NCBI GenBank assembly: GCA_017694875.1
Contig: JADIMG010000084.1
Coordinates: forward strand, 2,663-66,662
From: Candidatus Gallipaludibacter merdavium
GTDB lineage: Bacteria; Bacteroidota; Bacteroidia; Bacteroidales; Paludibacteraceae
Direction: 5' to 3'
Length of the DNA stretch: 64,000 nt
The number at the start of each line of letters is the position of its first letter. Position 1 is the stretch's first letter. Below the pieces are notes generated by a model. The model was not told where the DNA came from. It was given only the letters and a program-made list of their open reading frames with translations, and did not search any database. The position numbers and the translations under genes are program-made. Of the stretch, positions 1 through 12,913 are shown piece after piece.

Positions 1-1821
1 CAGTCGCAAGGCATCATTTTCCCCAACATTCTGCCACCCAATGAATTGGAATATGTGATGGATGCCGATACCAGCAACCGCTTTTACGAAACGCTGAAAC
101 AACTGACCGACGGCAAGTCTGACAACAATCCCGAAGGGCAAGGCCTCCATTACGCCCGCTACCGTGCCGTGGAATTTCTGAAGCCGGAACACCGCCACAA
201 ATACAGGAATGCTGTCCATATCGGCCAGACACTGGCTGGCATCTATCGTGTGCACATGGTCAAGCGGCTGGAGAGCAGTTTCTACGCCTTCAAAAAGTCA
301 CTCCAAACCCTCCTCCGCATCACCACAGATATGATTAAGATGTTCGATGAAAACAAGGTAATCATTGCTCCCGACCTGAAGGTAAAAGACCTACAGGTCA
401 AAAACATGGAGCTTGACGAAATCATCGAATATGCCCTTGCAAAAGGATATGTTGCCGAAGACATACTTTTTACCGCCGATGCCTTCACACCCGACTTCCT
501 CCAGATGCTCCACCACGACCGCATCATTCTGGAACAGCTCAATGCAGAATGGGAACAGGAAACCAAAGACCCCAAATTCGACAAGTTCCGGGAAAACCTG
601 ACCCAAAACTTTTTCAACAAGGACATCAATCCCTCAGGCAAACTGGTGCTATTCTCCGAAAGTGTTGACACACTCCACTATCTGTACGAACGGCTGACCC
701 GCGATATAGGGCGTCGTGATGTGCTGATGGTAACAGCCGCCAACAGAAACCGCTTGACGCAAACCATCAAGGAAAATTTCGATGCCAACTTCGGCAGCGC
801 TTCCATGCACTACAACATCATCATCACTTCCGATGTTTTGGCAGAGGGTGTAAACCTCCACCGTTCCAATGTGATTGTCAATTATGATTCGCCTTGGAAT
901 GCTACCCGGCTGATGCAGCGCATTGGGCGTGTCAACCGTATCGGCTCCCTCGCTCCCAACATCTACAACTATATGTTCTACCCGTCAAAGCAAGGCGACA
1001 AGGAAATCCAGCTCTACAAGAATGCCCTTGTCAAGTTGCAGGGCTTCCATTCCGCATTTGGCGAAGACGCACAAATCTACTCCAGAGAGGAAATAGTAAA
1101 AGAGTTTCAGATGTTCGACAGCAACGTAAAGGACAGCATCGACAAGAAGATTGCCCTGTTGCGTGAAGTGCGCGAACTCTACAACCACGACCGCAAGCTC
1201 TATCACAAAATCAAGGCTCTGCCTATGAAAAGCCGTGTCATGCGCCACACGGGCAAACACAGCGGCAAGTCCGTCATATTCGTTTCATCTTCCGTAAAGA
1301 CAGAGTTCTATCTGGCTAATTCTAAAGGCATAGAAGTGATTGATTTCCTTGAGGCGGTCAAATACCTCAAAGCCCAACCCGAAGAACAGCCCGTCCCCTT
1401 CAGCAATGAAGAGCAACACTACAGACATGTCAACAGCGCCTTGGCCCGATATACCGCAGAATATGTGGAAGCGGCAGATACCTCCTCCATCAACCGTACC
1501 GACCTTGACAAGATTTCACTGGAGGCCAACAAGTTTCTGCGCACCATCAAGCAGATATGCGCCGACAGCGAACTCAAAACGCAATGCGACGTGCTGATAG
1601 GATATATCAACGAAGGCATCTATGCCCAGCTCCCCCGCTATCTGAAAACCCTGTCGCGCGAGTACAGGAACAACCGCACCAAAATCAAGCAGGACGAATA
1701 CCTTTTGCAAAACAAGATATCCGAACTGCTGGATGAATATCAGACCATGAACAGGGAGCAACGCCACGAAGCTCATGACATTTCCAACCCACAAATCATC
1801 ATTTCCGAATCATTCAAATAG
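1..1821 (+). CDS. SF2/SNF2-type helicase, C-terminal part (5' end lies upstream of the window)
   Basis: Frame 1 is open from nt 1, with no stop before the listed ATG at 46, so the gene is cut by the window edge. Helicase C-terminal motifs are present: LVLFSESVDTLHYL, IIITSDVLAEGVNLH and QRIGRVNRIG (motif VI, QxxGRxxR). The stop lies 8 nt before the methyltransferase start. Confidence 0.75.
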   Translation, partial: QSQGIIFPNILPPNELEYVMDADTSNRFYETLKQLTDGKSDNNPEGQGLHYARYRAVEFLKPEHRHKYRNAVHIGQTLAGIYRVHMVKRLESSFYAFKKSLQTLLRITTDMIKMFDENKVIIAPDLKVKDLQVKNMELDEIIEYALAKGYVAEDILFTADAFTPDFLQMLHHDRIILEQLNAEWEQETKDPKFDKFRENLTQNFFNKDINPSGKLVLFSESVDTLHYLYERLTRDIGRRDVLMVTAANRNRLTQTIKENFDANFGSASMHYNIIITSDVLAEGVNLHRSNVIVNYDSPWNATRLMQRIGRVNRIGSLAPNIYNYMFYPSKQGDKEIQLYKNALVKLQGFHSAFGEDAQIYSREEIVKEFQMFDSNVKDSIDKKIALLREVRELYNHDRKLYHKIKALPMKSRVMRHTGKHSGKSVIFVSSSVKTEFYLANSKGIEVIDFLEAVKYLKAQPEEQPVPFSNEEQHYRHVNSALARYTAEYVEAADTSSINRTDLDKISLEANKFLRTIKQICADSELKTQCDVLIGYINEGIYAQLPRYLKTLSREYRNNRTKIKQDEYLLQNKISELLDEYQTMNREQRHEAHDISNPQIIISESFK

Positions 1822-1829
1822 ACACCGCT

Positions 1830-4800
1830 ATGGCCACCACATACACATCCGACAGCATGAGACAGCTCTTCCAATCACCCTTCCACCTAACTGATTGGTA
1901 CTCGTTCCTGCAACACTTTCTCAACGCCACCGAATTGAAAGCCACTCCAGAAAAAATCATTGGCAGCCACACCGACAACGGCTACTATTTAGGATGCATT
2001 GACACCACCGACAGCTATCGCATAGGTCTGTTTCATTATCCTATTGCCCATGGCTCTGTTGTCAATAAGCGTGTAGGCCTCCGCAACCTTGTCAAGTCGT
2101 TTATCAACCCCACATGGGGTGAATTCGATGCCGCACTGGTAGTGTTCGATAGCGGCGACCATTGGCGCCTGTCGTTTATTTGCGACATCAAAGGCGAAGC
2201 CACATCACCCAAACGATATACATACGTTTTCGGTAGTCATGAACTGCTCTACAAAACCCCTATCGAACGTTTCCGTTTCTTGCAGAATAAGGGCATATCA
2301 TTTGAAAATCTGAAAACCGCCTTCTCAGTCGAAGCCCTCTCCGACGAGTTTTTCGACAAATATCGTGAACAATATGCCGACTTCATCCAATATGTTACGG
2401 GGAAACGTTTTGTCAAGGTGGGCAACAAGTGGCAGGAAAAAGTACTCGGAAGTCCCAACGCCTCACTCATGCGTGCATTCGGCCATAACGAGAAAAAGAT
2501 TCGTGACTATGTAAAGAAGATGATGGGACGCATCACATTCCTCCACTTCCTGCAACGCAAAGGATGGATGTGTGGCGACCTCAACTACATGCAAAACCTA
2601 TTTGAACACTCCCCCTACCAGCACAATTTTCTTGATGCCGTGCTCGAACCACTGTTTTTCGGCATACTGAACACCCCACCCGCCCAACGTTCAGCCTTGT
2701 TTGCCGATTATGGTTGGGACTCCTCCTTGCTTCATGAATGGCAAGATATCCCCTATCTCAATGGCGGTCTGTTTGAGCGTGACGAGGAAGACGAACCCGA
2801 AAGCCGTTTTCCTGCCGAATATTTCAAGCGTCTGTTCCAGTTTTTCAGTGAATACAATTTCACCATCGACGAAAACGACCCCAATGACGCAGAAATAGGC
2901 GTTGACCCCGAAATGCTAGGTAAAATCTTTGAAAACCTGCTGGAAGACAATAAGGACAAAGGCGCATTCTACACCCCCAAAGAGATAGTGCGCTACATGT
3001 GCCAGGAGTCGCTCATTGCCTATCTGGAAACCAACACTTCCATTACCAGCGAGAAACTCAGGAAATTTGTCCTCTCCCCCGAAGATGGAGCCGCCTATAT
3101 CCCCGACAGCCAGAAAGCCCGTCTGCTTCGCGCACTGGAAGAAGTCAAGATTTGCGACCCAGCCATCGGCTCCGGCGCATTTCCCATGGGCTTGCTGAAC
3201 GAACTGCTCCATTGTCGTGAAGCGTTGAACGGCGAGCACAACAACCGTGCAGAAATAAAAAAAAGCATCATACAAAACAATATCTATGGAGTTGACATAG
3301 AAAAAGGCGCTGTTGACATTGCGCGCCTGCGCTTTTGGCTTTCTATTGTTGTGGACGAAGAAACACCCGCTCCACTGCCCAACTTTGACTATAAGATTAT
3401 GCAAGGCAATTCGCTTATAGAGAGCTTTAAGGGCGTCGATTTGAGCCAACTCACTTACGAGAAGAGCAGTAAAAAAGACTATCGCCAACCCTTGATTTTT
3501 GATGACGAGAAAAACCGCCTGCAAAAAACCGTTTCACATCTGCTGTCCACCTATTATTCCTGCTCAGACCACGACAGAAAGATGAAACTGCAACAGGAAA
3601 TTGCCAACACCATCAAAAAACAACTGACTGTACAATCCTACGACTCTGCTATTCTACAAGAACTCCAAACCATTAATCTTGCCGAAAACGACCAGTTCTT
3701 CCTGTGGCATACTTGGTTCAGTGACGTGTTCAGTCGCGAAGATGGTAAAAATGGCTTTGATATTGTTATCGGGAATCCGCCATATTTCTTATATCAAGAA
3801 TCTCATATTGGAGAAATTAGTAACCTGCGTCGTGATAAGGACTATACTATTGCATTTGGAGGAAAATTAAATGCATATAAACTTTTTATCGCAAATGCAA
3901 TTATGAAATTATTAGCTTCAAATGGAATAAATTGCTTTATCTTTCAAAATTCATTTTTGGGAGATCGACAGGCTACTAATTTAAGAAAGTATATTCTTAG
4001 AAATAAAAAAATTATCAAGATTGATTCATTCCCTGAACGAGATAGTAAAAAAAAGCGAGTTTTTGAAAGTGTAAAAATGAGTGTGTGCATATCCTTAATA
4101 CAAAATACCAAAGTAGATAGTAATTATATCTTCCCCATACATATATGGGATGATAAATATAAATCTTCTGGATTAAATACATCTTTTTCTCTAAATGATA
4201 TTATTGCTATTGATAGTGTTGATTATACGATTCCACGTTTACGCCCAGAATACAAAACTATCGTAATAAAATTGTTGAAAAAGAAAGAAGTCACTCTTAA
4301 ATGTATTGAGGGAGAATTGAATGTAACCTTCCATAAGAAATATTTTGGTTCCAATGTGGTGAACCCTATCATTCTGAAAGGTGCTTCTATTCAACGATAT
4401 CATTATACATTTCAAATGAGTCAAGGTCAAATTGACTATCTTGAAGAAGATAAATATTTATCAGAATATGGCACAACTGATAAATCTACCCATCATAAAT
4501 TTGAAAGAATTGCTATGCAAGGAATGACAGGTGCAAATGACAAAATTAGACTTATAATGTCTATTGTACCTCAAGGATATTATTTGGCAAATTCGTGCAA
4601 TTATATACTGCCATCACAATCAACAGATCTATATTGTTTATTGGGATTCCTTAACTCTAAAACCATAAATTGGTTTTTTAGATGTTTCAGTACTAATAGT
4701 AATGTCAATGGCTATGAGGTTGATAATTTCCCTATTCCACAGTTGTCCCCAAATGCTCAAGCGACGATTTCAGAATTGGTTAAAAAGGTTATTGATGCAA

Positions 4801-4907
4801 AAACAAACAGCTCAACTGATACTTCTGCAATAGAAAAGCAAATTGATGAGCTTGTTTATCAAGCTTATGAATTATCAAAAGATGATATAAAAATCATTGA
4901 ACAATAA
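1830..4907 (+). CDS. Eco57I/type IIG-like N6-adenine DNA methyltransferase with C-terminal specificity region (1025 aa)
   Basis: SAM-binding motif I CDPAIGSGAFPMG (about nt 3150-3190). Catalytic motif IV VIGNPPYF (about nt 3766-3789). A long N-terminal extension and a roughly 370-aa C-terminal region resemble TaqI-C-like target recognition domains. Tightly linked to the upstream helicase. Confidence 0.8.
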   Translation: MATTYTSDSMRQLFQSPFHLTDWYSFLQHFLNATELKATPEKIIGSHTDNGYYLGCIDTTDSYRIGLFHYPIAHGSVVNKRVGLRNLVKSFINPTWGEFDAALVVFDSGDHWRLSFICDIKGEATSPKRYTYVFGSHELLYKTPIERFRFLQNKGISFENLKTAFSVEALSDEFFDKYREQYADFIQYVTGKRFVKVGNKWQEKVLGSPNASLMRAFGHNEKKIRDYVKKMMGRITFLHFLQRKGWMCGDLNYMQNLFEHSPYQHNFLDAVLEPLFFGILNTPPAQRSALFADYGWDSSLLHEWQDIPYLNGGLFERDEEDEPESRFPAEYFKRLFQFFSEYNFTIDENDPNDAEIGVDPEMLGKIFENLLEDNKDKGAFYTPKEIVRYMCQESLIAYLETNTSITSEKLRKFVLSPEDGAAYIPDSQKARLLRALEEVKICDPAIGSGAFPMGLLNELLHCREALNGEHNNRAEIKKSIIQNNIYGVDIEKGAVDIARLRFWLSIVVDEETPAPLPNFDYKIMQGNSLIESFKGVDLSQLTYEKSSKKDYRQPLIFDDEKNRLQKTVSHLLSTYYSCSDHDRKMKLQQEIANTIKKQLTVQSYDSAILQELQTINLAENDQFFLWHTWFSDVFSREDGKNGFDIVIGNPPYFLYQESHIGEISNLRRDKDYTIAFGGKLNAYKLFIANAIMKLLASNGINCFIFQNSFLGDRQATNLRKYILRNKKIIKIDSFPERDSKKKRVFESVKMSVCISLIQNTKVDSNYIFPIHIWDDKYKSSGLNTSFSLNDIIAIDSVDYTIPRLRPEYKTIVIKLLKKKEVTLKCIEGELNVTFHKKYFGSNVVNPIILKGASIQRYHYTFQMSQGQIDYLEEDKYLSEYGTTDKSTHHKFERIAMQGMTGANDKIRLIMSIVPQGYYLANSCNYILPSQSTDLYCLLGFLNSKTINWFFRCFSTNSNVNGYEVDNFPIPQLSPNAQATISELVKKVIDAKTNSSTDTSAIEKQIDELVYQAYELSKDDIKIIEQ

Positions 4908-4917
4908 TTTAAATAGT

Positions 4918-4957
4918 AAAAGAGCGACCTGATTTCTCAAGGTCGCTCTTTCGTTTT
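4918..4957. terminator. Bidirectional rho-independent terminator shared by the convergent methyltransferase and repeat-protein genes
   Basis: Perfect 11-bp stem aaagagcgacc (4918-4928) / ggtcgctcttt (4941-4951) with a 12-nt loop. T-rich sequence follows on both strands. It sits exactly between the two stop codons (4907 and 4956). Confidence 0.7.
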
Positions 4958-5381
4958 AATATGTGTAATCTATGAATCCTATACTAATTAGATAGTCTGC
5001 AATATCATTCATATTCCTTTTCTGTAGTTCTTTAATTAAAATATGTGGTGGAGGCCAATTACTCATATATGGGTTACTACATGGACCTGTGTAAAGTCCA
5101 CCACCGGGACCTGTGTAAAGTCCACCACCGGGACCTGTGTAAAGTCCACCACCGGGACCTGTGTAAAGTCCACCACCGGGACCTGTGTAAAGTCCACCAC
5201 CGGGACCTGTATAAAGTCCACCACCAGGACCTGTGTAAAGTCCACCACCAGGACCTGTGTAAAGTCCACCACCAGGACCTGTGTAAAGTCCACCACCGGG
5301 ACCTATGTAAAGTCCACCACCAGGACCTGTGTAAAGTCCACCACCGGGACCTATGTATCTATCTCTTGGCCATTTGTTCAT
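4956..5381 (-). CDS. Glycine-rich repeat protein: 10-aa N-terminus, 11 x GPGGGLY(T/I), 43-aa unique C-terminal domain
   Basis: The start lies 6 nt after the stop of the upstream minus-strand gene, and the terminator hairpin directly follows the stop. Of the three kinds of repeat-unit variant, two are synonymous only in this frame (Pro ccc/cct, Tyr tac/tat) and one is T->I. This supports this frame over the five other open frames. Confidence 0.7.
   Translation of the reverse strand: MNKWPRDRYIGPGGGLYTGPGGGLYIGPGGGLYTGPGGGLYTGPGGGLYTGPGGGLYTGPGGGLYTGPGGGLYTGPGGGLYTGPGGGLYTGPGGGLYTGPCSNPYMSNWPPPHILIKELQKRNMNDIADYLISIGFIDYTY
5082..5357 (-). repeat. Tandem 24-bp repeat, 11 full units plus partial units at both ends (+ strand unit tgtgtaaagtccaccaccgggacc)
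   Basis: Read directly: contiguous 24-nt units from 5088 to 5351 with only 1-2 substitutions per unit. There are no spacers, so it is not CRISPR-like. The unit length is divisible by 3, so copy-number change keeps the frame. Confidence 0.95.
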
Positions 5382-5387
5382 ATCCTA

Positions 5388-6086
5388 TCACTTATGAAGT
5401 TCTTTTCTATCTATCCAAAAAGCATTATCTGGCTTTATTATTAGAATATCAACAGGACCTCCAACCGTCTTCGTCCGCTGTTGAAATTTCATTGTATCTA
5501 TAGTGGTTTGAATTGCATATTTTGCAAAATCAATAGCATCTTGTATTGTAAAATGATTAAATGGGATAGGATAATCTGTTAAAGCATTACCACTCTGCGT
5601 ATACATTGTAGTCAATACTCTACTAAGTACATCTATTTCACCATCCCATATTGCTCCTTGAATATCTGTATCAATAGATTCTATTTTATCTATAGCGGTA
5701 AAAATTCTATATAATTTTTGTTCATATGTTTTTCCTGTGTTTATATAACCTCCAATGATAAAATCTGTATCTATTGTTTGGCATAATGCTTTGAAATATG
5801 GAATTATTTCATCTTTAATTTCATCAACACATCCATCTTTATGTTCATTGATAAAACTTTCTATATAACCTGCGATGGGTTTGTTGTTGATACTTGCTTG
5901 ACCACATGCCGAAATACCAACTCCCTTTGGAGTTAGGAATGTCTTATATGAAGAATCACTATAATGAACTCCGTTATTTTGGACTATTGTTCCATCTTGC
6001 TTATGAATAGTAGCATTGAATGTTGTTCTACTATCACTGGCCATAACAATACCTTCGCCTAAATGTAAAGCAATAATTAACGACAT
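5388..6086 (-). CDS. Proteasome beta / HslV-like Ntn-hydrolase family peptidase (232 aa)
   Basis: The N-terminus M-SLIIALHLGEGIVMASDSRTT aligns by eye with HslV [22 protein letters not shown] and with the proteasome beta TTIVG...G.V.A.D motif. Ser2 sits at the nucleophile position, with no propeptide. Later IIGGY and GGPVDILIIKPD segments fit the proteasome fold pattern. Confidence 0.55.
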   Translation of the reverse strand: MSLIIALHLGEGIVMASDSRTTFNATIHKQDGTIVQNNGVHYSDSSYKTFLTPKGVGISACGQASINNKPIAGYIESFINEHKDGCVDEIKDEIIPYFKALCQTIDTDFIIGGYINTGKTYEQKLYRIFTAIDKIESIDTDIQGAIWDGEIDVLSRVLTTMYTQSGNALTDYPIPFNHFTIQDAIDFAKYAIQTTIDTMKFQQRTKTVGGPVDILIIKPDNAFWIDRKELHK

Positions 6087-6118: not shown

Positions 6119-7120
6119 TTATCTTTTGTCAATATCAATTTTTGTGATTTCATGCGAATCTACTCTTATACATTTTGCAGAACAATCATCAAACAATACA
6201 TAATTACGACCTCCTTTATGCAAAGAACTCTCAAAGCTTATTCCATCAGCCCCAACAATCCGTTTACAATATTCACAAATTAACTGAGTCGGGACATATT
6301 CTAATTCGGAATCATATCTACGAAGAGGTTTGGAAAGATCTTCACTTATGGCATCTATTATTTTTTTCTTGATGACGATTTCCTTCAGCGATGTAGTATC
6401 ATCATTATATACCAAGAATAAATTCACATCGTAAATAAAATCAACAAGTTCTAATTCACGTTCTATCCTAAATGTACCAACACTTAATTTATCTAAATAG
6501 ACTGCACGTACTTCGAAATAAGTCGTTTTTGCTGAATCACTTAAATATAAATAAGGTATTCCTATCGGGTTTGCACGACCTGCTGTTGCCAGTTCTTTAG
6601 GAGGGCACCCCATTTTATCACATTTAATTTTCTTTTGACCAACGGGTGTTATACGAGAACGATATAATTTTTGACCAACATGTAAACTCTTACCTGCTGT
6701 CAGATAATTATACTGAGCAAATTCATCCATATTGGTGAAGAAGCGGGATTTTTCTTTTACACTAGTTTTAAGTCTATCCCAAACTGCAACACGAATGCAA
6801 ATATCATCAGTGTAATCTACGAAATCAGCTATTGAGTAATCAAGATTATTTGCCTGAATAACATCAGCTAATAAAACCATTGCAACGTCTTTATCTTTAA
6901 AGAAATGCCACTCGTTCTGAATAATGTCAACGATTGTTTTATTACTATTCACTGTTGGAGAATACAATTCCAGTAAGGTAGTAAAAAATCCATAAAACTC
7001 AGAAAAATCCATAACTTTTCCTTTTCCTCCACACACTGCACAAACCCCATCACTACTACCATTTACACTAACCTCAGAACGCAATTCCTCATCATGGAAA
7101 CAATCTTTACAAATATACAT
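6119..7120 (-). CDS. RES-domain protein with N-terminal CxxC...CxxC zinc-ribbon domain (HEPN/RES-NTD1-like)
   Basis: The N-terminus is MYICKDCFHDE...GVCAVCGG, with four Cys at positions 4, 7, 27 and 30. RES signature: AGRANPIGIPYLYLSDSAKTTYFEVRA carries the Arg and Glu, and DGISFESSLHKGGRNYVLFD carries the Ser. Confidence 0.7.
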   Translation of the reverse strand: MYICKDCFHDEELRSEVSVNGSSDGVCAVCGGKGKVMDFSEFYGFFTTLLELYSPTVNSNKTIVDIIQNEWHFFKDKDVAMVLLADVIQANNLDYSIADFVDYTDDICIRVAVWDRLKTSVKEKSRFFTNMDEFAQYNYLTAGKSLHVGQKLYRSRITPVGQKKIKCDKMGCPPKELATAGRANPIGIPYLYLSDSAKTTYFEVRAVYLDKLSVGTFRIERELELVDFIYDVNLFLVYNDDTTSLKEIVIKKKIIDAISEDLSKPLRRYDSELEYVPTQLICEYCKRIVGADGISFESSLHKGGRNYVLFDDCSAKCIRVDSHEITKIDIDKR

Positions 7121-7131
7121 ACACTACATTG

Positions 7132-8076
7132 TTATAATGAAAGGATTAATTCCAAATGATTTTTAACTGACAACTTCTTCAAATACCCTAGACCTGGATA
7201 ACCATCAGGATTTTCCGCTTTTGCTATTATCTCACAAACTGCTGCTGTCTTATCTTTCTCTTTATAAAACAAAACAACCTTTCTTGCAGCTTCTCGAAAT
7301 TTTCCTCGAATATCACTATTCGTCTCGTTACTATCTGAAACAAAATGATGAACATATAACTGCTCCTCATTCTTTTTATACGAGAGATGAATAACTAAAG
7401 CGTACGGCAACATACCTCCTTCTATATATTCAGACGGCAATGTTGTATAATCTGAATAACCATCCAATTTGCCTTCATCTGCATAGAAAAATGGTTCTTC
7501 TGAAAACAACTCGTCTTCATTATACGCATAATCAGCATTACGTACCCTTGGTTTAAAACAATCATCCAATCGGATAATCTGTTTTCCTGTTTCCTTCAAT
7601 TGACTTCTCAATCTTCTTGAAATAGTAGATCCGAAAGAATTGACAATATATTCAACAGACTCATTATTGAGTATTTCCCATGCATCTTCATCATCAATAT
7701 CTATACAAGTACGAAAAATAATCATAACATGCTCAAGCTCATATTTATCAATCATTGAAGATATCTCATGAGCATTACTTTTAGAATAAAGAAAAGCAGG
7801 AATCCAGTCTTCCTTATTTGTCATTAATTTATCGTGTTGATACCATGCATCAAAATGAACTGTAGGATGTTTAAAATCTCCATCTTTCGGATTTAAAATA
7901 AGTGCAAATTTCAGTCTATTATGCATCATCTCATCTATCGCTAAAATCAATGCATTAGGTTGTTGTTTTACAGGTTCCAAGATAGGCGTTATAATTTTTT
8001 GCTCACTATGTTCTGCTGAGAACTCCCTTAAGGCCTTGAGCTCATATTGTTTTGCACGAAGATATGGATAATACAT
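7132..8076 (-). CDS. Beta-protein family (PF14350-like) / sce7725-family protein
   Basis: The N-terminus MYYPYLRAKQYELKALREF matches the characteristic start of Beta_protein/sce7725 family members as I recall it. It lies 3 nt downstream of its usual partner family (sce7726-like). Confidence 0.6.
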   Translation of the reverse strand: MYYPYLRAKQYELKALREFSAEHSEQKIITPILEPVKQQPNALILAIDEMMHNRLKFALILNPKDGDFKHPTVHFDAWYQHDKLMTNKEDWIPAFLYSKSNAHEISSMIDKYELEHVMIIFRTCIDIDDEDAWEILNNESVEYIVNSFGSTISRRLRSQLKETGKQIIRLDDCFKPRVRNADYAYNEDELFSEEPFFYADEGKLDGYSDYTTLPSEYIEGGMLPYALVIHLSYKKNEEQLYVHHFVSDSNETNSDIRGKFREAARKVVLFYKEKDKTAAVCEIIAKAENPDGYPGLGYLKKLSVKNHLELILSL

Positions 8077-8079
8077 AAT

Positions 8080-8955
8080 CTACTCTTGATTTATATTAAT
8101 ATTTAGTTGTTCCAATAACTTATTCGCTTTATCAGCTGATAAATTCAAACTCAACATCATTTGTCTAATCGGCATAGGATATTTTCGCAATAAAGATGTA
8201 TTGTTTTTACGCTTCTTTACTTCACACAAGAAAAGTTCCCTTAACTTACCTGAATCTGCTTGTAAAATAACATTGTAACAGAATTTATACATATCATAGC
8301 CATTCACTCCATCCAAAGAAATGCCTAATGATAATACTATATTCTTATATTCATCTGTTCTAAGGCAAGACATTAATGCTCTAGGATCAAAACGTTCATT
8401 ATGATGCGCAGACCTAACATCTTTAAGCACAATATGGCCATTATTCCAACTCATGGCTATAATACCAATTGTTGAATCTATAATATTGCAATACTCTTCT
8501 AATCTATTTTCTGGAACAACAATATAACATTTATCAAAAAAACACTTATAGTTTTCCATTTGTTTATCTAATCTACGAGGAGTATCATACTCGGTTTTTA
8601 TTTCAAACGCTTTACTTTCACCATTAAACATGACCATGTCAGCAATAGAATTTCCAACTTTGAATTCACTATAAAATACCGAGTTTCTTGTACCATACTT
8701 CTTAAGAAGAAGCTTTATCAACTCATTCTTATATACATACTCACATCTATAGTCTTTTGAGATTAAAGAATATGACTTTTTAAGTAAATCAAAATACGTA
8801 ACACATTTCAATGTGTTATATTTTGATACTAACCAATTAAAATGGGAATAATCATTGTAATTCAGAACATCTACAAATGCACTACGCGAAAAAGCAGAAG
8901 ATAAATCTCTCAGTCTAATCAACTCACTATTTATATTTGTAGTTGCCATAAACAA
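8080..8955 (-). CDS. sce7726-family protein, predicted PD-(D/E)xK nuclease fold
   Basis: The D...ExK motif is readable in SIADMVMFNGESKAFEIKTEYD. Size (291 aa) and pairing with a Beta-protein gene fit the sce7725/sce7726 gene pair. It is the first gene of the operon. Confidence 0.6.
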   Translation of the reverse strand: MFMATTNINSELIRLRDLSSAFSRSAFVDVLNYNDYSHFNWLVSKYNTLKCVTYFDLLKKSYSLISKDYRCEYVYKNELIKLLLKKYGTRNSVFYSEFKVGNSIADMVMFNGESKAFEIKTEYDTPRRLDKQMENYKCFFDKCYIVVPENRLEEYCNIIDSTIGIIAMSWNNGHIVLKDVRSAHHNERFDPRALMSCLRTDEYKNIVLSLGISLDGVNGYDMYKFCYNVILQADSGKLRELFLCEVKKRKNNTSLLRKYPMPIRQMMLSLNLSADKANKLLEQLNININQE

Positions 8956-9077: not shown

Positions 9078-10277
9078 TCATGTACCCCTTTTAACAACTC
9101 CCTCACACAATCCCATTCTTCCCCTAAAAACAATTCCCCTACTCCCATACAACTTATTTATCCACATGGCAAATAGCCTGTCCGTTACAGAGAACACCTT
9201 GTTGATTTCCGTGATAAGGTCTTTTTCAAGTAGCTTTTTGGCAGCCGATTGTACCGAACTGGCAGAAGTGAGGCTATGGCGCCTGATAAATTCCGACGAG
9301 GTAATACGTTCCGCTTCACCATCCTTGGCAATGGCATAAAGCAATTCTTTTTGCTTTTCGGGAATGTTTGAAAGTATTTCACGGAAAATAGTATCGTTCG
9401 ATGCTATCATATTATCTATGGCTGTCTGTATGGTCTCCAGCGTGCATTCATCTCCTTCGGGGGTATCAGCAAAAGATTCATTGAACGTCTTTTGAATGTA
9501 ATAGGTGTGTCCTTGAAAGAGTGCGTAAACCTTTTCCACATCCGATTCAGCTATCGTGCGGTTGCGTTGCTTGAAATGACGGACAACGAAAGGCACATAG
9601 ATTTCTGCGGGTATGGCTTTCAGTTCCAGCATATCGGCACTATGGTAGAACGGGCGGGCAGACGACACAAACATCTCCTGCATCATGTGACGCTCACTGC
9701 CGGCAAAAATAAAATGACTATTATCCAAACGCCGTATATGGGTTCGCAACAATGCCTCAATGTTATTTTCTGGGTATTTGGCAATCTGCTGAAATTCGTC
9801 GATAGCAACAATGCAAGGCTTGTCGGCATGCGCCAAGTATTGGAAAATCTCATCAAGCGTATATTCGGGACGCTCAATATCTCCCAATTCAACATTAAAG
9901 GTTGGAAGTTGGGTAATGGGGTCAAATCCAAATTTCCCGCTAATGGATTTTATGGTCTGAATAAAGAGTGTCGCCATTTTACGGCTACGGGGCAGGAGTG
10001 TTTCGTATATTTCCCGCCCAAGCAAATATGTAAATTCCCGCAGGCTTGACGTATGCAGAATATCTATAAAGAAAGTGTAGTATGCTTTATTGATTTCTGG
10101 TTTGTCATAGCAAAACTGAATCAGACCGGTTTTACCCATACGACGAGGGGAAATAATGACCATATTATTTCCGTTGGTAATCGACTTGATAAGCCGTGCA
10201 GATTCACTTACACGGTCACAAAAATATTCCGGTGCAATCTTTCCGGTTACTACGAATGGATTTATTGTTTTTGCCAT
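9078..10277 (-). CDS. AAA-type ATP-binding protein (Arch_ATPase + DUF234-like)
   Basis: Walker A IISPRRMGKTGL and Walker B CIVAIDEFQ. The N-terminus NPFVVTGKIAPEYFCDR is typical of this Bacteroidales ATPase family. The C-terminus resembles a winged helix. Confidence 0.7.
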   Translation of the reverse strand: MAKTINPFVVTGKIAPEYFCDRVSESARLIKSITNGNNMVIISPRRMGKTGLIQFCYDKPEINKAYYTFFIDILHTSSLREFTYLLGREIYETLLPRSRKMATLFIQTIKSISGKFGFDPITQLPTFNVELGDIERPEYTLDEIFQYLAHADKPCIVAIDEFQQIAKYPENNIEALLRTHIRRLDNSHFIFAGSERHMMQEMFVSSARPFYHSADMLELKAIPAEIYVPFVVRHFKQRNRTIAESDVEKVYALFQGHTYYIQKTFNESFADTPEGDECTLETIQTAIDNMIASNDTIFREILSNIPEKQKELLYAIAKDGEAERITSSEFIRRHSLTSASSVQSAAKKLLEKDLITEINKVFSVTDRLFAMWINKLYGSRGIVFRGRMGLCEGVVKRGT

Positions 10278-10753: not shown

Positions 10754-11485
10754 ATGAATAAATATAACAAACAATTAAACAATTGCATACAGACCATTGA
10801 GCGTATTAGTAACATGATTAATTTGCAACACATTTCAAGTGAAGAAATTAGTTATAATGAGCTTTATAATGATCTATATCAATTGATATCGCTTATACCA
10901 CAAGAATATCATATTTTTCGAGATCGACTAAGAGACAATATTTTGCCAAATTTAAAAATACCAGACCAAGTAACAAAAGCCAGAAATGGACAACTATTTG
11001 TTACCCCAAGAAATGGTATCAATCCTTATTCATTTGGTGAGGTTATTGCAACTATTGCATATCTAAAAGGTAATGGTAACAACAACTCCCCATCAATTTG
11101 GGACAATATCCACCCACAAATTAGCATGGTTGCTAAAAGTCGTTATGATAATGGGCATTATGCTGATGCAGTAGAAGCGGCATTCAAGGAAGTAAACACC
11201 CGAGTTAAAAACATATATAAAATTAGAACGTCAATTGAAAAGGATGGTGCCAAATTAATGCAAGCTGCATTTTCAGTTCATAATCCAGTTATTAAGATCG
11301 GAGATCTTTCAACAGAAACTGGTATTAACATTCAACAAGGATATATGGAAATGTTTGCAGGAGCAATGATAGGGATTAGAAATCCTAAAGCACATTGCAA
11401 CCAAACAATCTCAAAAGCAGACGCAACTAGAAAATTACATTTTGCCAGCATGCTAATGTACAAACTAAATGATGAAATTATTTAA
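10754..11485 (+). CDS. HEPN-domain protein of the Ymh/TIGR02391 type
   Basis: C-terminal HEPN Rx4-6H motif in GAMIGIRNPKAHCNQ. The gene is AT-rich and located in the defence-gene neighbourhood. Confidence 0.6.
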   Translation: MNKYNKQLNNCIQTIERISNMINLQHISSEEISYNELYNDLYQLISLIPQEYHIFRDRLRDNILPNLKIPDQVTKARNGQLFVTPRNGINPYSFGEVIATIAYLKGNGNNNSPSIWDNIHPQISMVAKSRYDNGHYADAVEAAFKEVNTRVKNIYKIRTSIEKDGAKLMQAAFSVHNPVIKIGDLSTETGINIQQGYMEMFAGAMIGIRNPKAHCNQTISKADATRKLHFASMLMYKLNDEII

Positions 11486-11536
11486 CCACCTTAATTGAAT
11501 ATCTTCAAAGAAAAAACCACGATTACATCTTTCAAT

Positions 11537-12913
11537 ATGACAGAAAACAACCGCATAGAATTTAAAAGAGAACTGACTAACGAACTTGATATAGAAAAAG
11601 AGATTGTGGCATTCCTTAATTACAAGGAAGGGGGATATATCTACATTGGCATTGACAATGACGGAAGGACCATAGGAGTAAACGACGTGGATGACTGTAT
11701 GCTGAAATTGAAAGAACGTATCAAACACAATATATCTCCTTCTGCAATGGGTCTGTTTGATATTGCAGAGGAACAAAAAGACGGACATAGCATTATCAAG
11801 GTTACAGTAGCAAGCGGTATTGAGAAACCATATTTCAAAACAAGATATGGAATGACGCCACGAGGTGCATATATGCGGATTGGGACATCGGCTGAACCTA
11901 TGCCGCAAGAACAGATTGACCGTCTGTTTGCTATGCGGACACGTAATTCCATTGGTCGAATAGTGTCAAACCGACAGGATTTGAGTTTTGAACAGTTGCG
12001 TATCTATTACGATGAACGAGGAAAAAGGCTCAACGACAATTTCAAACGAACATTGGAATTGCTTACTGAAGATGGGAAATACAATTATGTAGCCTATCTT
12101 CTGGCTGACGAGAACGGAAATTCTATCAAAGTGGCAAAGTATTCAAGTCTAGACCGCTGTGATTTGGTGGAGAACAACGAATACGGATATTGTTCTCTCA
12201 TAAAAGCGACCAAGAGTGTGTTGGCCAAACTGGATATAGAAAACAAAGTTGCCGCCACCATTACATCTATGGAGCGCATTGAAACCCCTTTGTGGAACAA
12301 GGTTGCTTTGCGCGAAGCGGTTATCAATGCGATTGTACATAACGATTACTCCTTTGAAGTGCCACCCAAATTTGAAATATTTCCCGACAGACTGGAGATA
12401 ACTTCAGCAGGACGTTTGCCGGAATCCCTCTCCAAAGAGGAATTTTTCAATGGTATATCAATTCCACGCAACAAGGAGCTGATGAGAATTTATCGCGATT
12501 TGGAACTGGTAGAATCGTTAGGCTCTGGCATCCCTCGTATTCTGAAAGCCTATGGCGAAGAATGCTTCAAATTTACCGACAATTTTATCCGCATTACTTT
12601 TCCTATTACTGCTCATGATACTAACAGTGACCATGCAAGTGACCATGCAAGTGACCATGCAAGTGACCATGCAAGCACACAAGTAAGAAAGCTCATTTCT
12701 ATTCTTGCCGGAGAGAAAGGGCGTTCAGAACTACAAGAATTGTTGTCGATTAAAAATAGAGATTATTTTAGAACTGATTATTTACTCCCTGCAATTAATA
12801 ACGGCTATATAGAGCCAACTGTGCCTGATAAGCCCAATAGTCAAAACCAGAAATATCGCCTTACTGCAAAAGGTTTAGCATTGAAGGAGAGTTTGAAGAA
12901 TAGCAAACAGTGA
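11537..12913 (+). CDS. AlbA_2 (Schlafen-like) DNA-binding domain + HATPase_c_4-like domain + C-terminal wHTH protein (often mislabelled RecG-like)
   Basis: NNRIEFKREL...IVAFLNYKEGGYIYIGIDNDGRTIGV is the AlbA_2 signature. ALREAVINAIVHNDYS is the HATPase_c_4-like signature. The ORF-track start at 11495 is a TTG; the first ATG (MTENNRIEFK) is at 11537. Confidence 0.7.
   Translation: MTENNRIEFKRELTNELDIEKEIVAFLNYKEGGYIYIGIDNDGRTIGVNDVDDCMLKLKERIKHNISPSAMGLFDIAEEQKDGHSIIKVTVASGIEKPYFKTRYGMTPRGAYMRIGTSAEPMPQEQIDRLFAMRTRNSIGRIVSNRQDLSFEQLRIYYDERGKRLNDNFKRTLELLTEDGKYNYVAYLLADENGNSIKVAKYSSLDRCDLVENNEYGYCSLIKATKSVLAKLDIENKVAATITSMERIETPLWNKVALREAVINAIVHNDYSFEVPPKFEIFPDRLEITSAGRLPESLSKEEFFNGISIPRNKELMRIYRDLELVESLGSGIPRILKAYGEECFKFTDNFIRITFPITAHDTNSDHASDHASDHASDHASTQVRKLISILAGEKGRSELQELLSIKNRDYFRTDYLLPAINNGYIEPTVPDKPNSQNQKYRLTAKGLALKESLKNSKQ
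12626..12673 (+). repeat. Perfect 4 x 12-bp tandem repeat (agtgaccatgca) encoding (SDHA)4 in a linker
   Basis: Read directly from the sequence. It is in frame inside the AlbA_2 protein gene. Confidence 0.95.

Follow-up and report, generated by a model that had tools for sequence, protein, structure and literature searches.

The stretch of DNA analysed here, called the window, is 64,000 nucleotides of Candidatus Gallipaludibacter merdavium (assembly GCA_017694875.1, contig JADIMG010000084.1, positions 2,663 to 66,662). Near one end it carries a small gene, named rep, that encodes a 141-aa protein built around eleven glycine-rich octapeptides. The gene lies immediately behind a gene for a proteasome-like hydrolase (p232) and converges with a restriction-modification gene. 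The features of the locus, in window coordinates, are:

1830-4907, plus strand: convergent Type IIG restriction-modification enzyme (Eco57I/MmeI-type) identified by Pfam and PADLOC.
4918-4952, minus strand: strong stem-loop directly after the rep stop codon, followed by a U-rich tail, the likely terminator of the transcription unit, lying between convergent genes.
4956-5381, minus strand: rep, encoding MNKWPRDRYI, eleven GPGGGLYT units and a 43-aa C-terminal module.
4956-5087, minus strand: C-terminal module of rep, GPCSNPYMSNWPPP plus two helices, with the invariant P104, N108 and P110, and including the stop codon.
5088-5351, minus strand: eleven 24-nt units encoding GPGGGLYT (GPGGGLYI in unit 2).
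5352-5381, minus strand: N-terminal segment with the family motif W-P-R-D-x-Y, in which W4, R6 and Y9 are invariant, inferred to form a clasp with the C-terminal side.
5388-6086, minus strand: p232, a proteasome beta-subunit/Anbu-like Ntn hydrolase with a Ser nucleophile, whose stop codon lies 6 nt before the rep start codon.
6119-8955, minus strand: upstream module in the same orientation, comprising a RES-domain protein (6119-7120), an sce7725/Beta_protein family gene (7132-8076) and an sce7726 family gene (8080-8955), identified by Pfam, NCBIfam and PADLOC hits.

The preliminary description of this locus reported a translated array of eleven near-identical octapeptides, and that observation is confirmed. 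Tandem Repeats Finder gives one array at 5083-5357 (period 24, 11.5 copies, 96% matches, no indels, score 501), by far the strongest repeat in the window. Reading it unit by unit shows eleven in-register 24-nt units that differ only at CCC/CCT (Pro, synonymous), TAC/TAT (Tyr, synonymous) and ACA/ATA (Thr to Ile, unit 2), the three kinds of substitution listed beforehand. The encoded protein has exactly the sequence given there, with a 10-aa N-terminus, 11 x 8 aa and a 43-aa C-terminus. The other long ORFs over the array (5043-5444 and 5045-5503 on the plus strand, 5063-5296 on the minus strand) are stop-free by-products of the repeat. The array is not an assembly loop, as its longest perfectly 24-periodic stretch is 128 nt, below the assembler's k of 141, and identical DNA was assembled in two samples. 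An independent 11-unit allele with diverged unit DNA is found at locus L124.

The interpretation that accompanied this observation is partly supported. Its claim that the repeat is translated in the minus-strand frame under purifying selection holds: against the L124 allele, which is 73% identical, there are 77 synonymous and 19 non-synonymous codon differences overall, and 56 versus 3 within the array. Homologues in many phyla keep this frame. The window array is the most homogenised at the DNA level of 32 compared, with a within-array identity of 0.964 versus 0.61-0.87 in the others. The prediction, set out beforehand as a test, that strains would differ in unit number and always in frame was borne out by alleles of 6, 7, 9 (two different alleles), 11 and 13 units with identical flanks (30/30 and 132/132 nt), among which all unit differences are synonymous and 11 units is the commonest number. 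Periodic runs in these alleles are shorter than the assemblers' k, and identical alleles were recovered from independent samples and assemblers, although contigs of related strains often break inside the array (loci L039, L125-L127 and L143-L148), one scaffold has an N-gap there and one has a 1-nt insertion.

Rep belongs to a large family without annotation. An exhaustive HMMER search returned 899 representatives at E <= 1e-3 (clusters at 50% identity) from more than 10 bacterial phyla and archaeal MAGs. Scans of rep with Pfam (E <= 0.01), NCBIfam, PADLOC and PHROGs found nothing, and a profile search of PDB sequences hit only a Plasmodium low-complexity tract. Full-text literature searches for the motif, for sce7725/sce7726, for glycine-rich repeats in defence and for octapeptide repeats gave no relevant paper, and none contained the motif. 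No match was found by tblastn in phage and plasmid collections, a result to be discounted because the low-complexity filter masks the query; a pattern-based scan of viral sequences found one locus, at a prophage edge. A profile search aimed at finding the C-terminal module without repeats, or fused to other domains, returned only the same family or gene calls starting at internal Met codons.

The family architecture is WPRDxY, eight-residue units of the type x-P/V-G-G-G-L/M/A-Y/S-T, normally eleven of them, PYxSNxPP and then a helical hairpin. The 11-unit span occurs in 34 of 71 hits and in about 22 of 30 genome loci, although family members with 1 to 12 units exist. Among 83 distinct 11-unit arrays, unit 3 is Ala in 73 and never Leu, units 6, 8, 9 and 10 are Leu in 77-81, and Tyr is replaced by Ser in many homologues. 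Most members are cytosolic, but some carry signal peptides, and a second, secreted architecture has exactly 11 units with Cys at -5, +5, +85 and +104. In exported members a Cys before W co-occurs with a Cys in PYC (13/8/6/147, p = 3e-10, not corrected for phylogeny). The AF2 model of rep, based on a 23-sequence alignment, is confident only for the C-terminal module (block-mean pLDDT 90-95 for residues 111-130, over helices 112-121 and 125-133; 65 for residues 101-110). It pairs a strand at residues 4-6 (block mean 51) with a strand at 105-107. The array, residues 7-101, has pLDDT below 50, with bridges about every 16 residues in this low-confidence model; glycine-rich folds are often mispredicted.

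The p232 product has no Pfam hit, including to Proteasome (PF00227), and a single-sequence search of PDB gave only a faint match to Anbu 5lox at the N-terminus (E = 1.2). Its AF2 model (pLDDT 86, pTM 0.81) nevertheless gives Foldseek hits to Anbu (5nyw/5nyj) and 20S beta subunits with probability 1.0 and E about 1e-8, and 320 hits have E <= 0.001, supporting the earlier proposal that the neighbour of rep is a proteasome-like Ntn hydrolase. In an alignment of 34 sequences the Asp17 of the ASD17SR motif and K47 are invariant and the Ser after Met is nearly invariant, being Thr in one member. Among the proteasome homologues surveyed by Fuchs, Alva and Lupas in 2021, which share this beta-subunit fold, the triad is Thr1/Ser1-Asp17-Lys33 (PMC8665760); in p232 the nucleophile is also directly after Met but the Lys is shifted by an insertion. 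That survey reports no informative genomic context for such homologues, whereas one clade here has a conserved partner gene.

Rep follows p232, with gaps of 0-6 nt or overlapping stop and start codons, in the window and at loci L039, L040, L124-L127 and L130-L148. It does so in every p232 relative at least 67% identical. This two-gene cassette recurs in Bacteroidales behind four different upstream contexts: the RES operon of the window, a divergent OLD-TOPRIM ATPase plus UvrD helicase in sister strains (Gabija-like by domain content), an AAA_14/DUF4143 ATPase, and a mobilisable element. The RES module is thus replaceable and not part of the cassette, whereas the Type IIG enzyme is a constant neighbour in the strains sampled, the same 1025-1026-aa protein lying downstream in L130-L140. 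Outside this clade the two genes almost always occur apart: 79 of 80 other p232 loci lack rep, as does the 59%-identical L128, none of 36 rep loci in other genomes has p232, and the p232 family, with more than 1,100 clusters, almost always lacks rep. BLAST of the neighbours in the window against the 36 genome loci, together with all-vs-all clustering of neighbours and Pfam over 37 loci, found no conserved partner for rep, and the same holds for p232.

Rep and p232 have no PADLOC family themselves, but members of the rep family lie beside different defence systems (Lamassu, short pAgo, TIR, IetS, PDC-S06, Type ISP). The neighbours include LmuA/LmuB, short pAgo plus its REase partner (8-nt gap), a TIR protein plus PD-Lambda-3_A (0-nt gap), IetS, PDC-S06, PDC-S59, a dCTPase-model protein, a CAP12-type TIR protein (44-nt gap), Type ISP RM and DUF4145. 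At least 12 of about 37 loci have PADLOC- or Pfam-defined defence genes within two genes, often within 100 nt and co-oriented, a count made without a formal background control. Several other rep neighbours are housekeeping genes such as carA, guaA, an SDR and a glycosyltransferase.

We favour, with a probability of about 0.5, the hypothesis that rep is a folded, cytosolic small protein acting as a binding partner or regulator of the adjacent effector. The analysis itself establishes that the array is translated and under strong purifying selection, that its length is held near 11 units across phyla, that individual units have their own conserved residues, that family members are embedded in defence islands next to quite different anti-phage effectors, that the cassette with p232 moves as a unit between contexts in one Bacteroidales clade, and that in this lineage recombination between near-identical units homogenises the array and creates in-frame alleles. 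The fold and the function are inferred. The WPRDxY and PYxSNxPP segments would pair with each other and bring the two ends of the array together, so that it forms a compact repeat domain, probably a beta-roll-like or polyglycine-II-like stack with the Leu/Met/Ala position buried and the Tyr/Ser-Thr hydroxyls exposed. A folded array rests on conservation patterns only, and the tolerated variation in unit number sits uneasily with a strictly closed fold. Since the protein has no catalytic features, it most likely acts stoichiometrically as a sensor, adaptor or inhibitor; for p232 it could be a regulator or pseudo-substrate. No experiment bears on these roles, neither gene needs the other in general, and the signal peptides of some members are hard to reconcile with one shared cytosolic partner mechanism.

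The preliminary description had proposed a multivalent disordered or silk-like scaffold or decoy, a dedicated substrate or plug of the peptidase, or a RiPP- or signal-like multi-core precursor. The substrate or plug reading is only weakly supported and appears unlikely. In it, p232 would cleave the array, for example after Leu-Tyr into octapeptides, or be kept shut by a glycine-rich pseudo-substrate until infection. It is favoured by the tight coupling of the cassette across four upstream contexts and by the catalytic Ser, Asp and Lys of p232. Glycine-rich tracts (the NF-kB p105 GRR, EBNA1 Gly-Ala) impede proteasomal processing, and chymotrypsin-like proteasome sites cut after Tyr or Leu. However, the two genes mostly occur apart, rep elsewhere sits beside non-protease effectors, Tyr is often Ser, and conserved unit identity and an N/C clasp are not needed for a mere cleavage substrate. 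It is scarcely less doubtful that rep and p232 are independent single-gene residents of variable or defence islands merely linked in one clade, rep acting alone, for example by binding a phage or envelope component. Both families are scattered among RM genes, transposases and integrases without a conserved neighbour, exported rep variants exist, and rep also occurs beside housekeeping genes; yet the gaps to different effectors are repeatedly very short (0, 8, 44 and 53 nt) and co-oriented, and the p232-rep pair stays together while its surroundings change.

The remaining readings are weaker. A disordered, silk- or elastin-like scaffold or condensate former is not supported and is improbable, in spite of the low pLDDT over the array, a composition of about 50% Gly with Pro-Gly turns and regularly spaced Tyr, and the variable unit number among strains. 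Against it stand the recurrence of eleven units across phyla and in the second architecture, the position-specific residues, the evidence for an N/C clasp, the existence of Ser-type proteins in which Tyr is dispensable, and the very strong constraint on every codon of the array. A RiPP-like precursor processed into identical Tyr-containing octapeptides is suggested by identical tandem cores next to a peptidase, but is likewise not supported and very improbable: no conserved modifying enzyme, transporter or leader is present in 36 + 3 loci, the cores are the most conserved part rather than hypervariable, the short flanks are conserved and structured, and most members are cytosolic with no peptidase neighbour. 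A non-coding satellite or assembly artefact, to which the contig breaks might point, is effectively refuted by the short periodic runs, the independent recovery of identical alleles and the protein-level conservation across phyla.

Comparison with characterised repeats shows partial resemblances. RTX beta-rolls also have short glycine-rich units with one conserved hydrophobic position, arrays of roughly a dozen units and likely turn-plus-short-strand geometry, but their GGxGxDxUx unit has period 9 and a conserved Asp Ca2+ ligand. In rep the period is 8, Asp is rare at every unit position, position 3 is Gly in 74-79 of 83 arrays, there is no HemolysinCabind hit, and most members are cytosolic rather than T1SS substrates. 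Polyglycine-II bundle proteins (snow-flea antifreeze protein, Obg N-domain, phage S16 gp38 tip) are, as rep is inferred to be, compact folds of Gly-rich segments that sequence methods and AF2 handle poorly, but they use Gly-x-x tripeptide periodicity, whereas rep has GGG within an 8-residue unit, and the PDB profile search gave no sequence or structure match. Spider flagelliform/MaSp2 silks share the local motif G-P-G-G-x with Pro-Gly turns, but as pentapeptides in very long, variable arrays within spidroins with dedicated terminal domains, while rep is prokaryotic, with 141 aa in total, a strict spacing of 8, usually 11 copies in its family and position-specific residues, and no Pfam family, spidroin terminal domains included, matches it at E <= 0.01. 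A collagen-like triple helix was rejected by inspection, Gly not being at every third residue with an 8-residue period. In-frame VNTR or contingency-type genes have near-identical DNA units, concerted evolution within the array and strain alleles differing by whole units between identical flanks, as found here, but they usually encode surface proteins of freely varying length, whereas here the number 11 is conserved across phyla even where the unit DNA has diverged.

A more far-reaching and tentative possibility is that the clasped 11 x 8 array is a new protein fold and the family a new modular component of prokaryotic immunity that plugs into many effectors, forming with p232 in Bacteroidales a previously unrecognised two-gene anti-phage system; this would give the first functional context for one of the orphan proteasome homologues. 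If the favoured inference holds, a family of roughly a thousand sequence clusters, spread over bacteria and archaea and found in defence islands, would become a candidate immunity component with no catalytic domain, the kind of small accessory protein that current defence-system catalogues miss, and the cassette would provide a genomic partner to an orphan proteasome homologue. The locus would also be a natural experiment in repeat evolution, its 6- to 13-unit alleles forming a length-function series that already exists in nature.

Two further observations concern the transcription unit. The ATPase encoded upstream of the operon (9078-10277) shows no BLAST similarity to the AAA_14/DUF4143 ATPase upstream of the cassette in L040 and L126, so the idea that they are the same, ancestral gene was rejected. 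A consensus terminator scan returned none, probably because of loop length, but direct RNA folding of the sequence after the rep stop codon showed a strong hairpin (-22.1 kcal/mol, z = -6.3, with 0 of 200 shuffles folding as well).

The tandem array is real and lies where the preliminary description placed it. Tandem Repeats Finder reports a period of 24, 11.5 copies, 96% matches, no indels and a score of 501, the next best repeat in the window scoring 100. The features concerned are:

5083-5357: tandem array as delimited by Tandem Repeats Finder
4956-5381, minus strand: ORF of the repeat protein (rep), giving MNKWPRDRYI, (GPGGGLYT)x11 and a 43-residue tail
5088-5351: the eleven units of the array
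5388-6086: p232, the neighbouring gene for a predicted proteasome-like hydrolase

The eleven units differ only by CCC/CCT, TAC/TAT and one ACA/ATA (Thr to Ile in unit 2). Three other long ORFs over the array are by-products of a stop-free repeat. The contig comes from a k = 141 assembly and the longest perfectly periodic run is 128 nt, so that every k-mer is anchored, and two samples gave identical DNA.

A search of a 5.8-billion-protein collection returned 830 hits. Their inspection shows one architecture in Armatimonadota, Actinomycetota, Myxococcota, Bacteroidota and others, composed of WPRDxY, 8-residue units, the segment G-P-C/S-x-x-P-Y-x-S-N-x-P-P, and about 30 mostly helical residues. 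In locus L124, a 77%-identical copy of the upstream gene p232 is followed by another 141-aa, 11-unit allele whose DNA is only 73% identical to that of the window. The two alleles differ at 77 synonymous and 19 non-synonymous codons, and at 56 and 3, respectively, within the array. The minus-strand frame is therefore under strong purifying selection.

An exhaustive HMMER search of 1.84 billion cluster representatives found 899 proteins at E <= 1e-3 and 305 at E <= 1e-10. A scan of one genome per species found 36 loci, including isolates and complete genomes, in Fusobacteriota, Desulfuromonadota, Actinomycetota, Bacteroidota, Acidobacteriota, Myxococcota, Campylobacterota, Chloroflexota, Patescibacteria, Armatimonadota, Bacillota, Pseudomonadota and two archaeal MAGs. 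No Pfam, NCBIfam, PADLOC or PHROG model matches the protein, no solved structure matches apart from a low-complexity tract, and no paper in the literature searched contains the motif. The C-terminal module was never found on its own: a profile of it retrieves only the same architecture with fewer units, or gene calls that begin at an internal Met of the array.

Several lines of evidence argue for a defined fold rather than a silk-like polymer. The span from W to PY is exactly 100 residues (11 units) in 34 of 71 hits and all other spans differ by multiples of 8. In the less biased genome set, about 22 of 30 complete members have 11 units. The units also have individual character. Among 83 distinct 11-unit arrays the hydrophobic position of unit 3 is Ala in 73 cases and never Leu, whereas it is Leu in 77-81 cases in units 6, 8, 9 and 10, and a Leu/Met mixture in units 2, 4, 5 and 11. 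Tyr is replaceable by Ser, but GGG and the hydrophobic position are not replaceable. AlphaFold models the array poorly (pLDDT below 50), pairs residues 4-6 with 105-107 and places two helices at 112-133. Only the C-terminal module is confident in this model (block-mean pLDDT 90-95 for residues 111-130), the blocks holding the two paired strands averaging 51 and 65. Independently, exported members that carry a Cys just before the Trp ('AECPxGTW') almost always carry a Cys in 'xYCSN' (counts 13/8/6/147, Fisher p = 3e-10, not corrected for relatedness). A second architecture is found in secreted or lipoprotein-type proteins (P0360, P0362, P0378, P0391, P0396 and locus L011), whose variable N-terminal parts look Sel1-like, FKBP-like or PEGA-like by eye. 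These proteins end in a Cys-capped array of exactly 11 GPGGx units at strict 8-residue spacing, with Cys at -5, +5, +85 and +104, probably the same repeat fold in an extracytoplasmic setting. Together these points argue for a compact repeat domain whose first and last units lie close together, with a geometry that could be beta-roll-like or polyglycine-II-like.

None of the 36 genome loci contains a BLAST-detectable relative of the neighbours of rep in this window, and all-vs-all clustering of neighbours finds no conserved partner. The neighbours are nevertheless far from random, judging from their inventory rather than from a formal enrichment against background.

Co-oriented, adjacent defence genes at rep loci of the family, with the gap to rep where recorded

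L003: LmuA and LmuB
L021: LmuB-like ATPase
L025: PDC-S06; gap about 53 nt
L032: IetS
L009: SpbK-like TIR protein upstream, PD-Lambda-3_A downstream; gap 0 nt (downstream)
L005: short pAgo with its REase-APAZ partner; gap 8 nt
L017: dCTPase-model protein
L020: PDC-S59
L121: CAP12-type TIR protein; gap 44 nt
L122: DUF4062 protein and Type ISP enzyme
L023: DUF4145

Transposases are frequent, while some loci instead border housekeeping genes. Only one locus was found in 2.9 million viral contigs, at a prophage edge. The family is thus a cellular resident of defence islands, next to many different systems.

The assignment of the neighbour p232 as a proteasome-like peptidase in the preliminary description is correct at fold level. 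P232 has no Pfam hit. Its family (more than 1,100 clusters) has a nearly invariant Ser directly after Met (Thr in one member), an invariant Asp17 in an ASDSR motif and an invariant Lys. The AF2 model is confident (pLDDT 86, pTM 0.81) and Foldseek returns Anbu and 20S beta subunits with probability 1.0. The 2021 survey of new proteasome homologues lists a Thr1/Ser1-Asp17-Lys33 triad and states that no informative genomic context was found (PMC8665760). Across 80 metagenomic p232 loci we again find no conserved neighbour, the surroundings being a mix of RM, CARF, integrase, transposase and housekeeping genes.

Only close p232 relatives are followed by rep, but all of them are. These are L039 (87% identical; the contig ends inside the array), L040 (69%; 6 units, with overlapping stop and start codons), L124/L125 (77%), L126/L127 (67%; the contigs end inside the array) and all contigs carrying p232 variants at least 90% identical. 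A 59% relative (L128) lacks rep. The 90%-identity cluster of p232 includes 69-72-aa fragments annotated in complete Bacteroides fragilis genomes (for example WP_032560377.1), which may be remnants of the cassette in a cultivable species.

The cassette has four different upstream contexts: the co-oriented sce7726-sce7725-RES operon of this window, a divergent OLD-TOPRIM ATPase (608 aa) plus UvrD helicase (650 aa), which is a Gabija-like pair by domain content, an AAA_14/DUF4143 ATPase, and a mobilisable element with a relaxase and NikA. The first two occupy the same chromosomal slot, between the cassette and the flanking genome, in different sister strains (window compared with loci L130-L138), which looks like a defence-island hotspot with swappable cargo. 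The apparent five-gene operon of the window, with gaps of 3, 11, 32 and 6 nt, is therefore two modules, 3 + 2. A strong hairpin follows the rep stop codon (-22.1 kcal/mol, z = -6.3). The whole block is low in G+C, at 0.29-0.33 against 0.48-0.50 in the flanks. The host, Candidatus Gallipaludibacter merdavium, is a gut Bacteroidales lineage. Other features of the island are:

6119-8955: the sce7726-sce7725-RES operon
7132-8955, minus strand: the sce7725 and sce7726 family genes of this operon
1830-4907, plus strand: Type IIG restriction-modification gene
46-1821, plus strand: SNF2/PLD-type helicase gene, cut by the window start
10754-11485, plus strand: gene for a Hypoth_Ymh/HEPN protein
11495-12913: ORF of a 472-aa protein next to the HEPN/Hypoth_Ymh gene
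12626-12675, plus strand: tandem repeat inside this ORF

The sce7725 and sce7726 family proteins match PHROGs of unknown function (phrog_34524, E = 3e-40; phrog_984, E = 1e-27), and the sce7726 protein also matches the PADLOC 'cll' model and Pfam Phage_P4_cII. This pair thus occurs also in phages or satellites, and is joined here to a RES-domain protein.

The array of the window is the most homogenised of 32 arrays. Its unit-to-unit DNA identity is 0.964, against 0.61-0.87 elsewhere, while identity between the window and L124 arrays is 0.747, which indicates concerted evolution. Strains whose flanks are 100% identical at the DNA level (30/30 and 132/132 nt) carry different alleles.

Unit number of rep alleles among loci with identical flanks

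11 units: window, L130, L131, L133, L135, L139
9 units: L132 and L134 (same allele); L138 (a different allele)
7 units: L140
6 units: L136
13 units: L137

The alleles differ by clean block gains and losses, and all unit differences are synonymous. Perfect 24-nt and 48-nt periodic runs are 47-59 nt and 83-117 nt in the alleles whose assembler k is known (119-141), while L137, from an assembler of unknown k, reaches 165 nt. These alleles are thus unlikely to be assembly collapses. Assembly does struggle at this locus, since many contigs end in the array, one scaffold has an N-gap, and the 11-unit allele of L142 (2766-3190) has a single extra base (GGGTCCC) at unit 3 that would break the frame, being either a natural null allele or a strain-mixing assembly error. 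The in-frame copy-number variation predicted in the preliminary description is therefore borne out. Eleven remains the commonest number here and is the dominant state family-wide. The allele of the window is unusual in having Leu in unit 3, where the family has Ala, which fits recent homogenisation.

The analysis establishes that the gene encodes a real, constrained protein of a large unannotated family with a fixed architecture, that this family resides in defence islands, that in this clade it forms a mobile two-gene cassette with a proteasome-like hydrolase, and that strains carry in-frame length alleles. That the array is a compact fold with adjoining ends is an inference, as is any function. 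The protein has no catalytic features, so it probably acts by binding, and it is most plausibly an accessory (sensor, adaptor or inhibitor) of the adjacent effector, here p232. We privilege this composite hypothesis with a probability of about 0.5. Its main weaknesses are that it rests on sequence and prediction alone, that the array is left unmodelled, that 6-13 units are tolerated, that exported members exist, and that residence in defence islands is judged from the inventory of neighbours alone.

Within this hypothesis, the specific version in which rep is the substrate or plug of p232 appears unlikely. An independent single-gene function is hardly more probable. A disordered scaffold is improbable and a RiPP-like precursor more so, while an artefact can be practically dismissed. 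The interpretation advanced in the preliminary description is supported only in part. The family matches no described family, fold or system that we could find. The nearest analogies, RTX beta-rolls, polyglycine-II bundles and silk GPGGX, each fail on their defining features, and we consider it categorically new at the level of protein family and probable fold.

The Type IIG restriction-modification gene changes G+C abruptly, from about 0.48 to about 0.30, near position 3400-3600. The low-GC part covers its C-terminal half, which includes the TaqI_C specificity domain, suggesting a recombined or exchanged target-recognition region. The SNF2/PLD-type helicase (1097 aa in locus L001) lies directly upstream of the Type IIG enzyme. 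The Hypoth_Ymh/HEPN protein matches PD-Lambda-3_B, and in L009 a rep homologue abuts a PD-Lambda-3_A-like gene. The repeat inside ORF 11495-12913 is a second perfect in-frame tandem repeat of the window, with a period of 12, 4.2 copies and 100% identity, that encodes (SDHA)x4.
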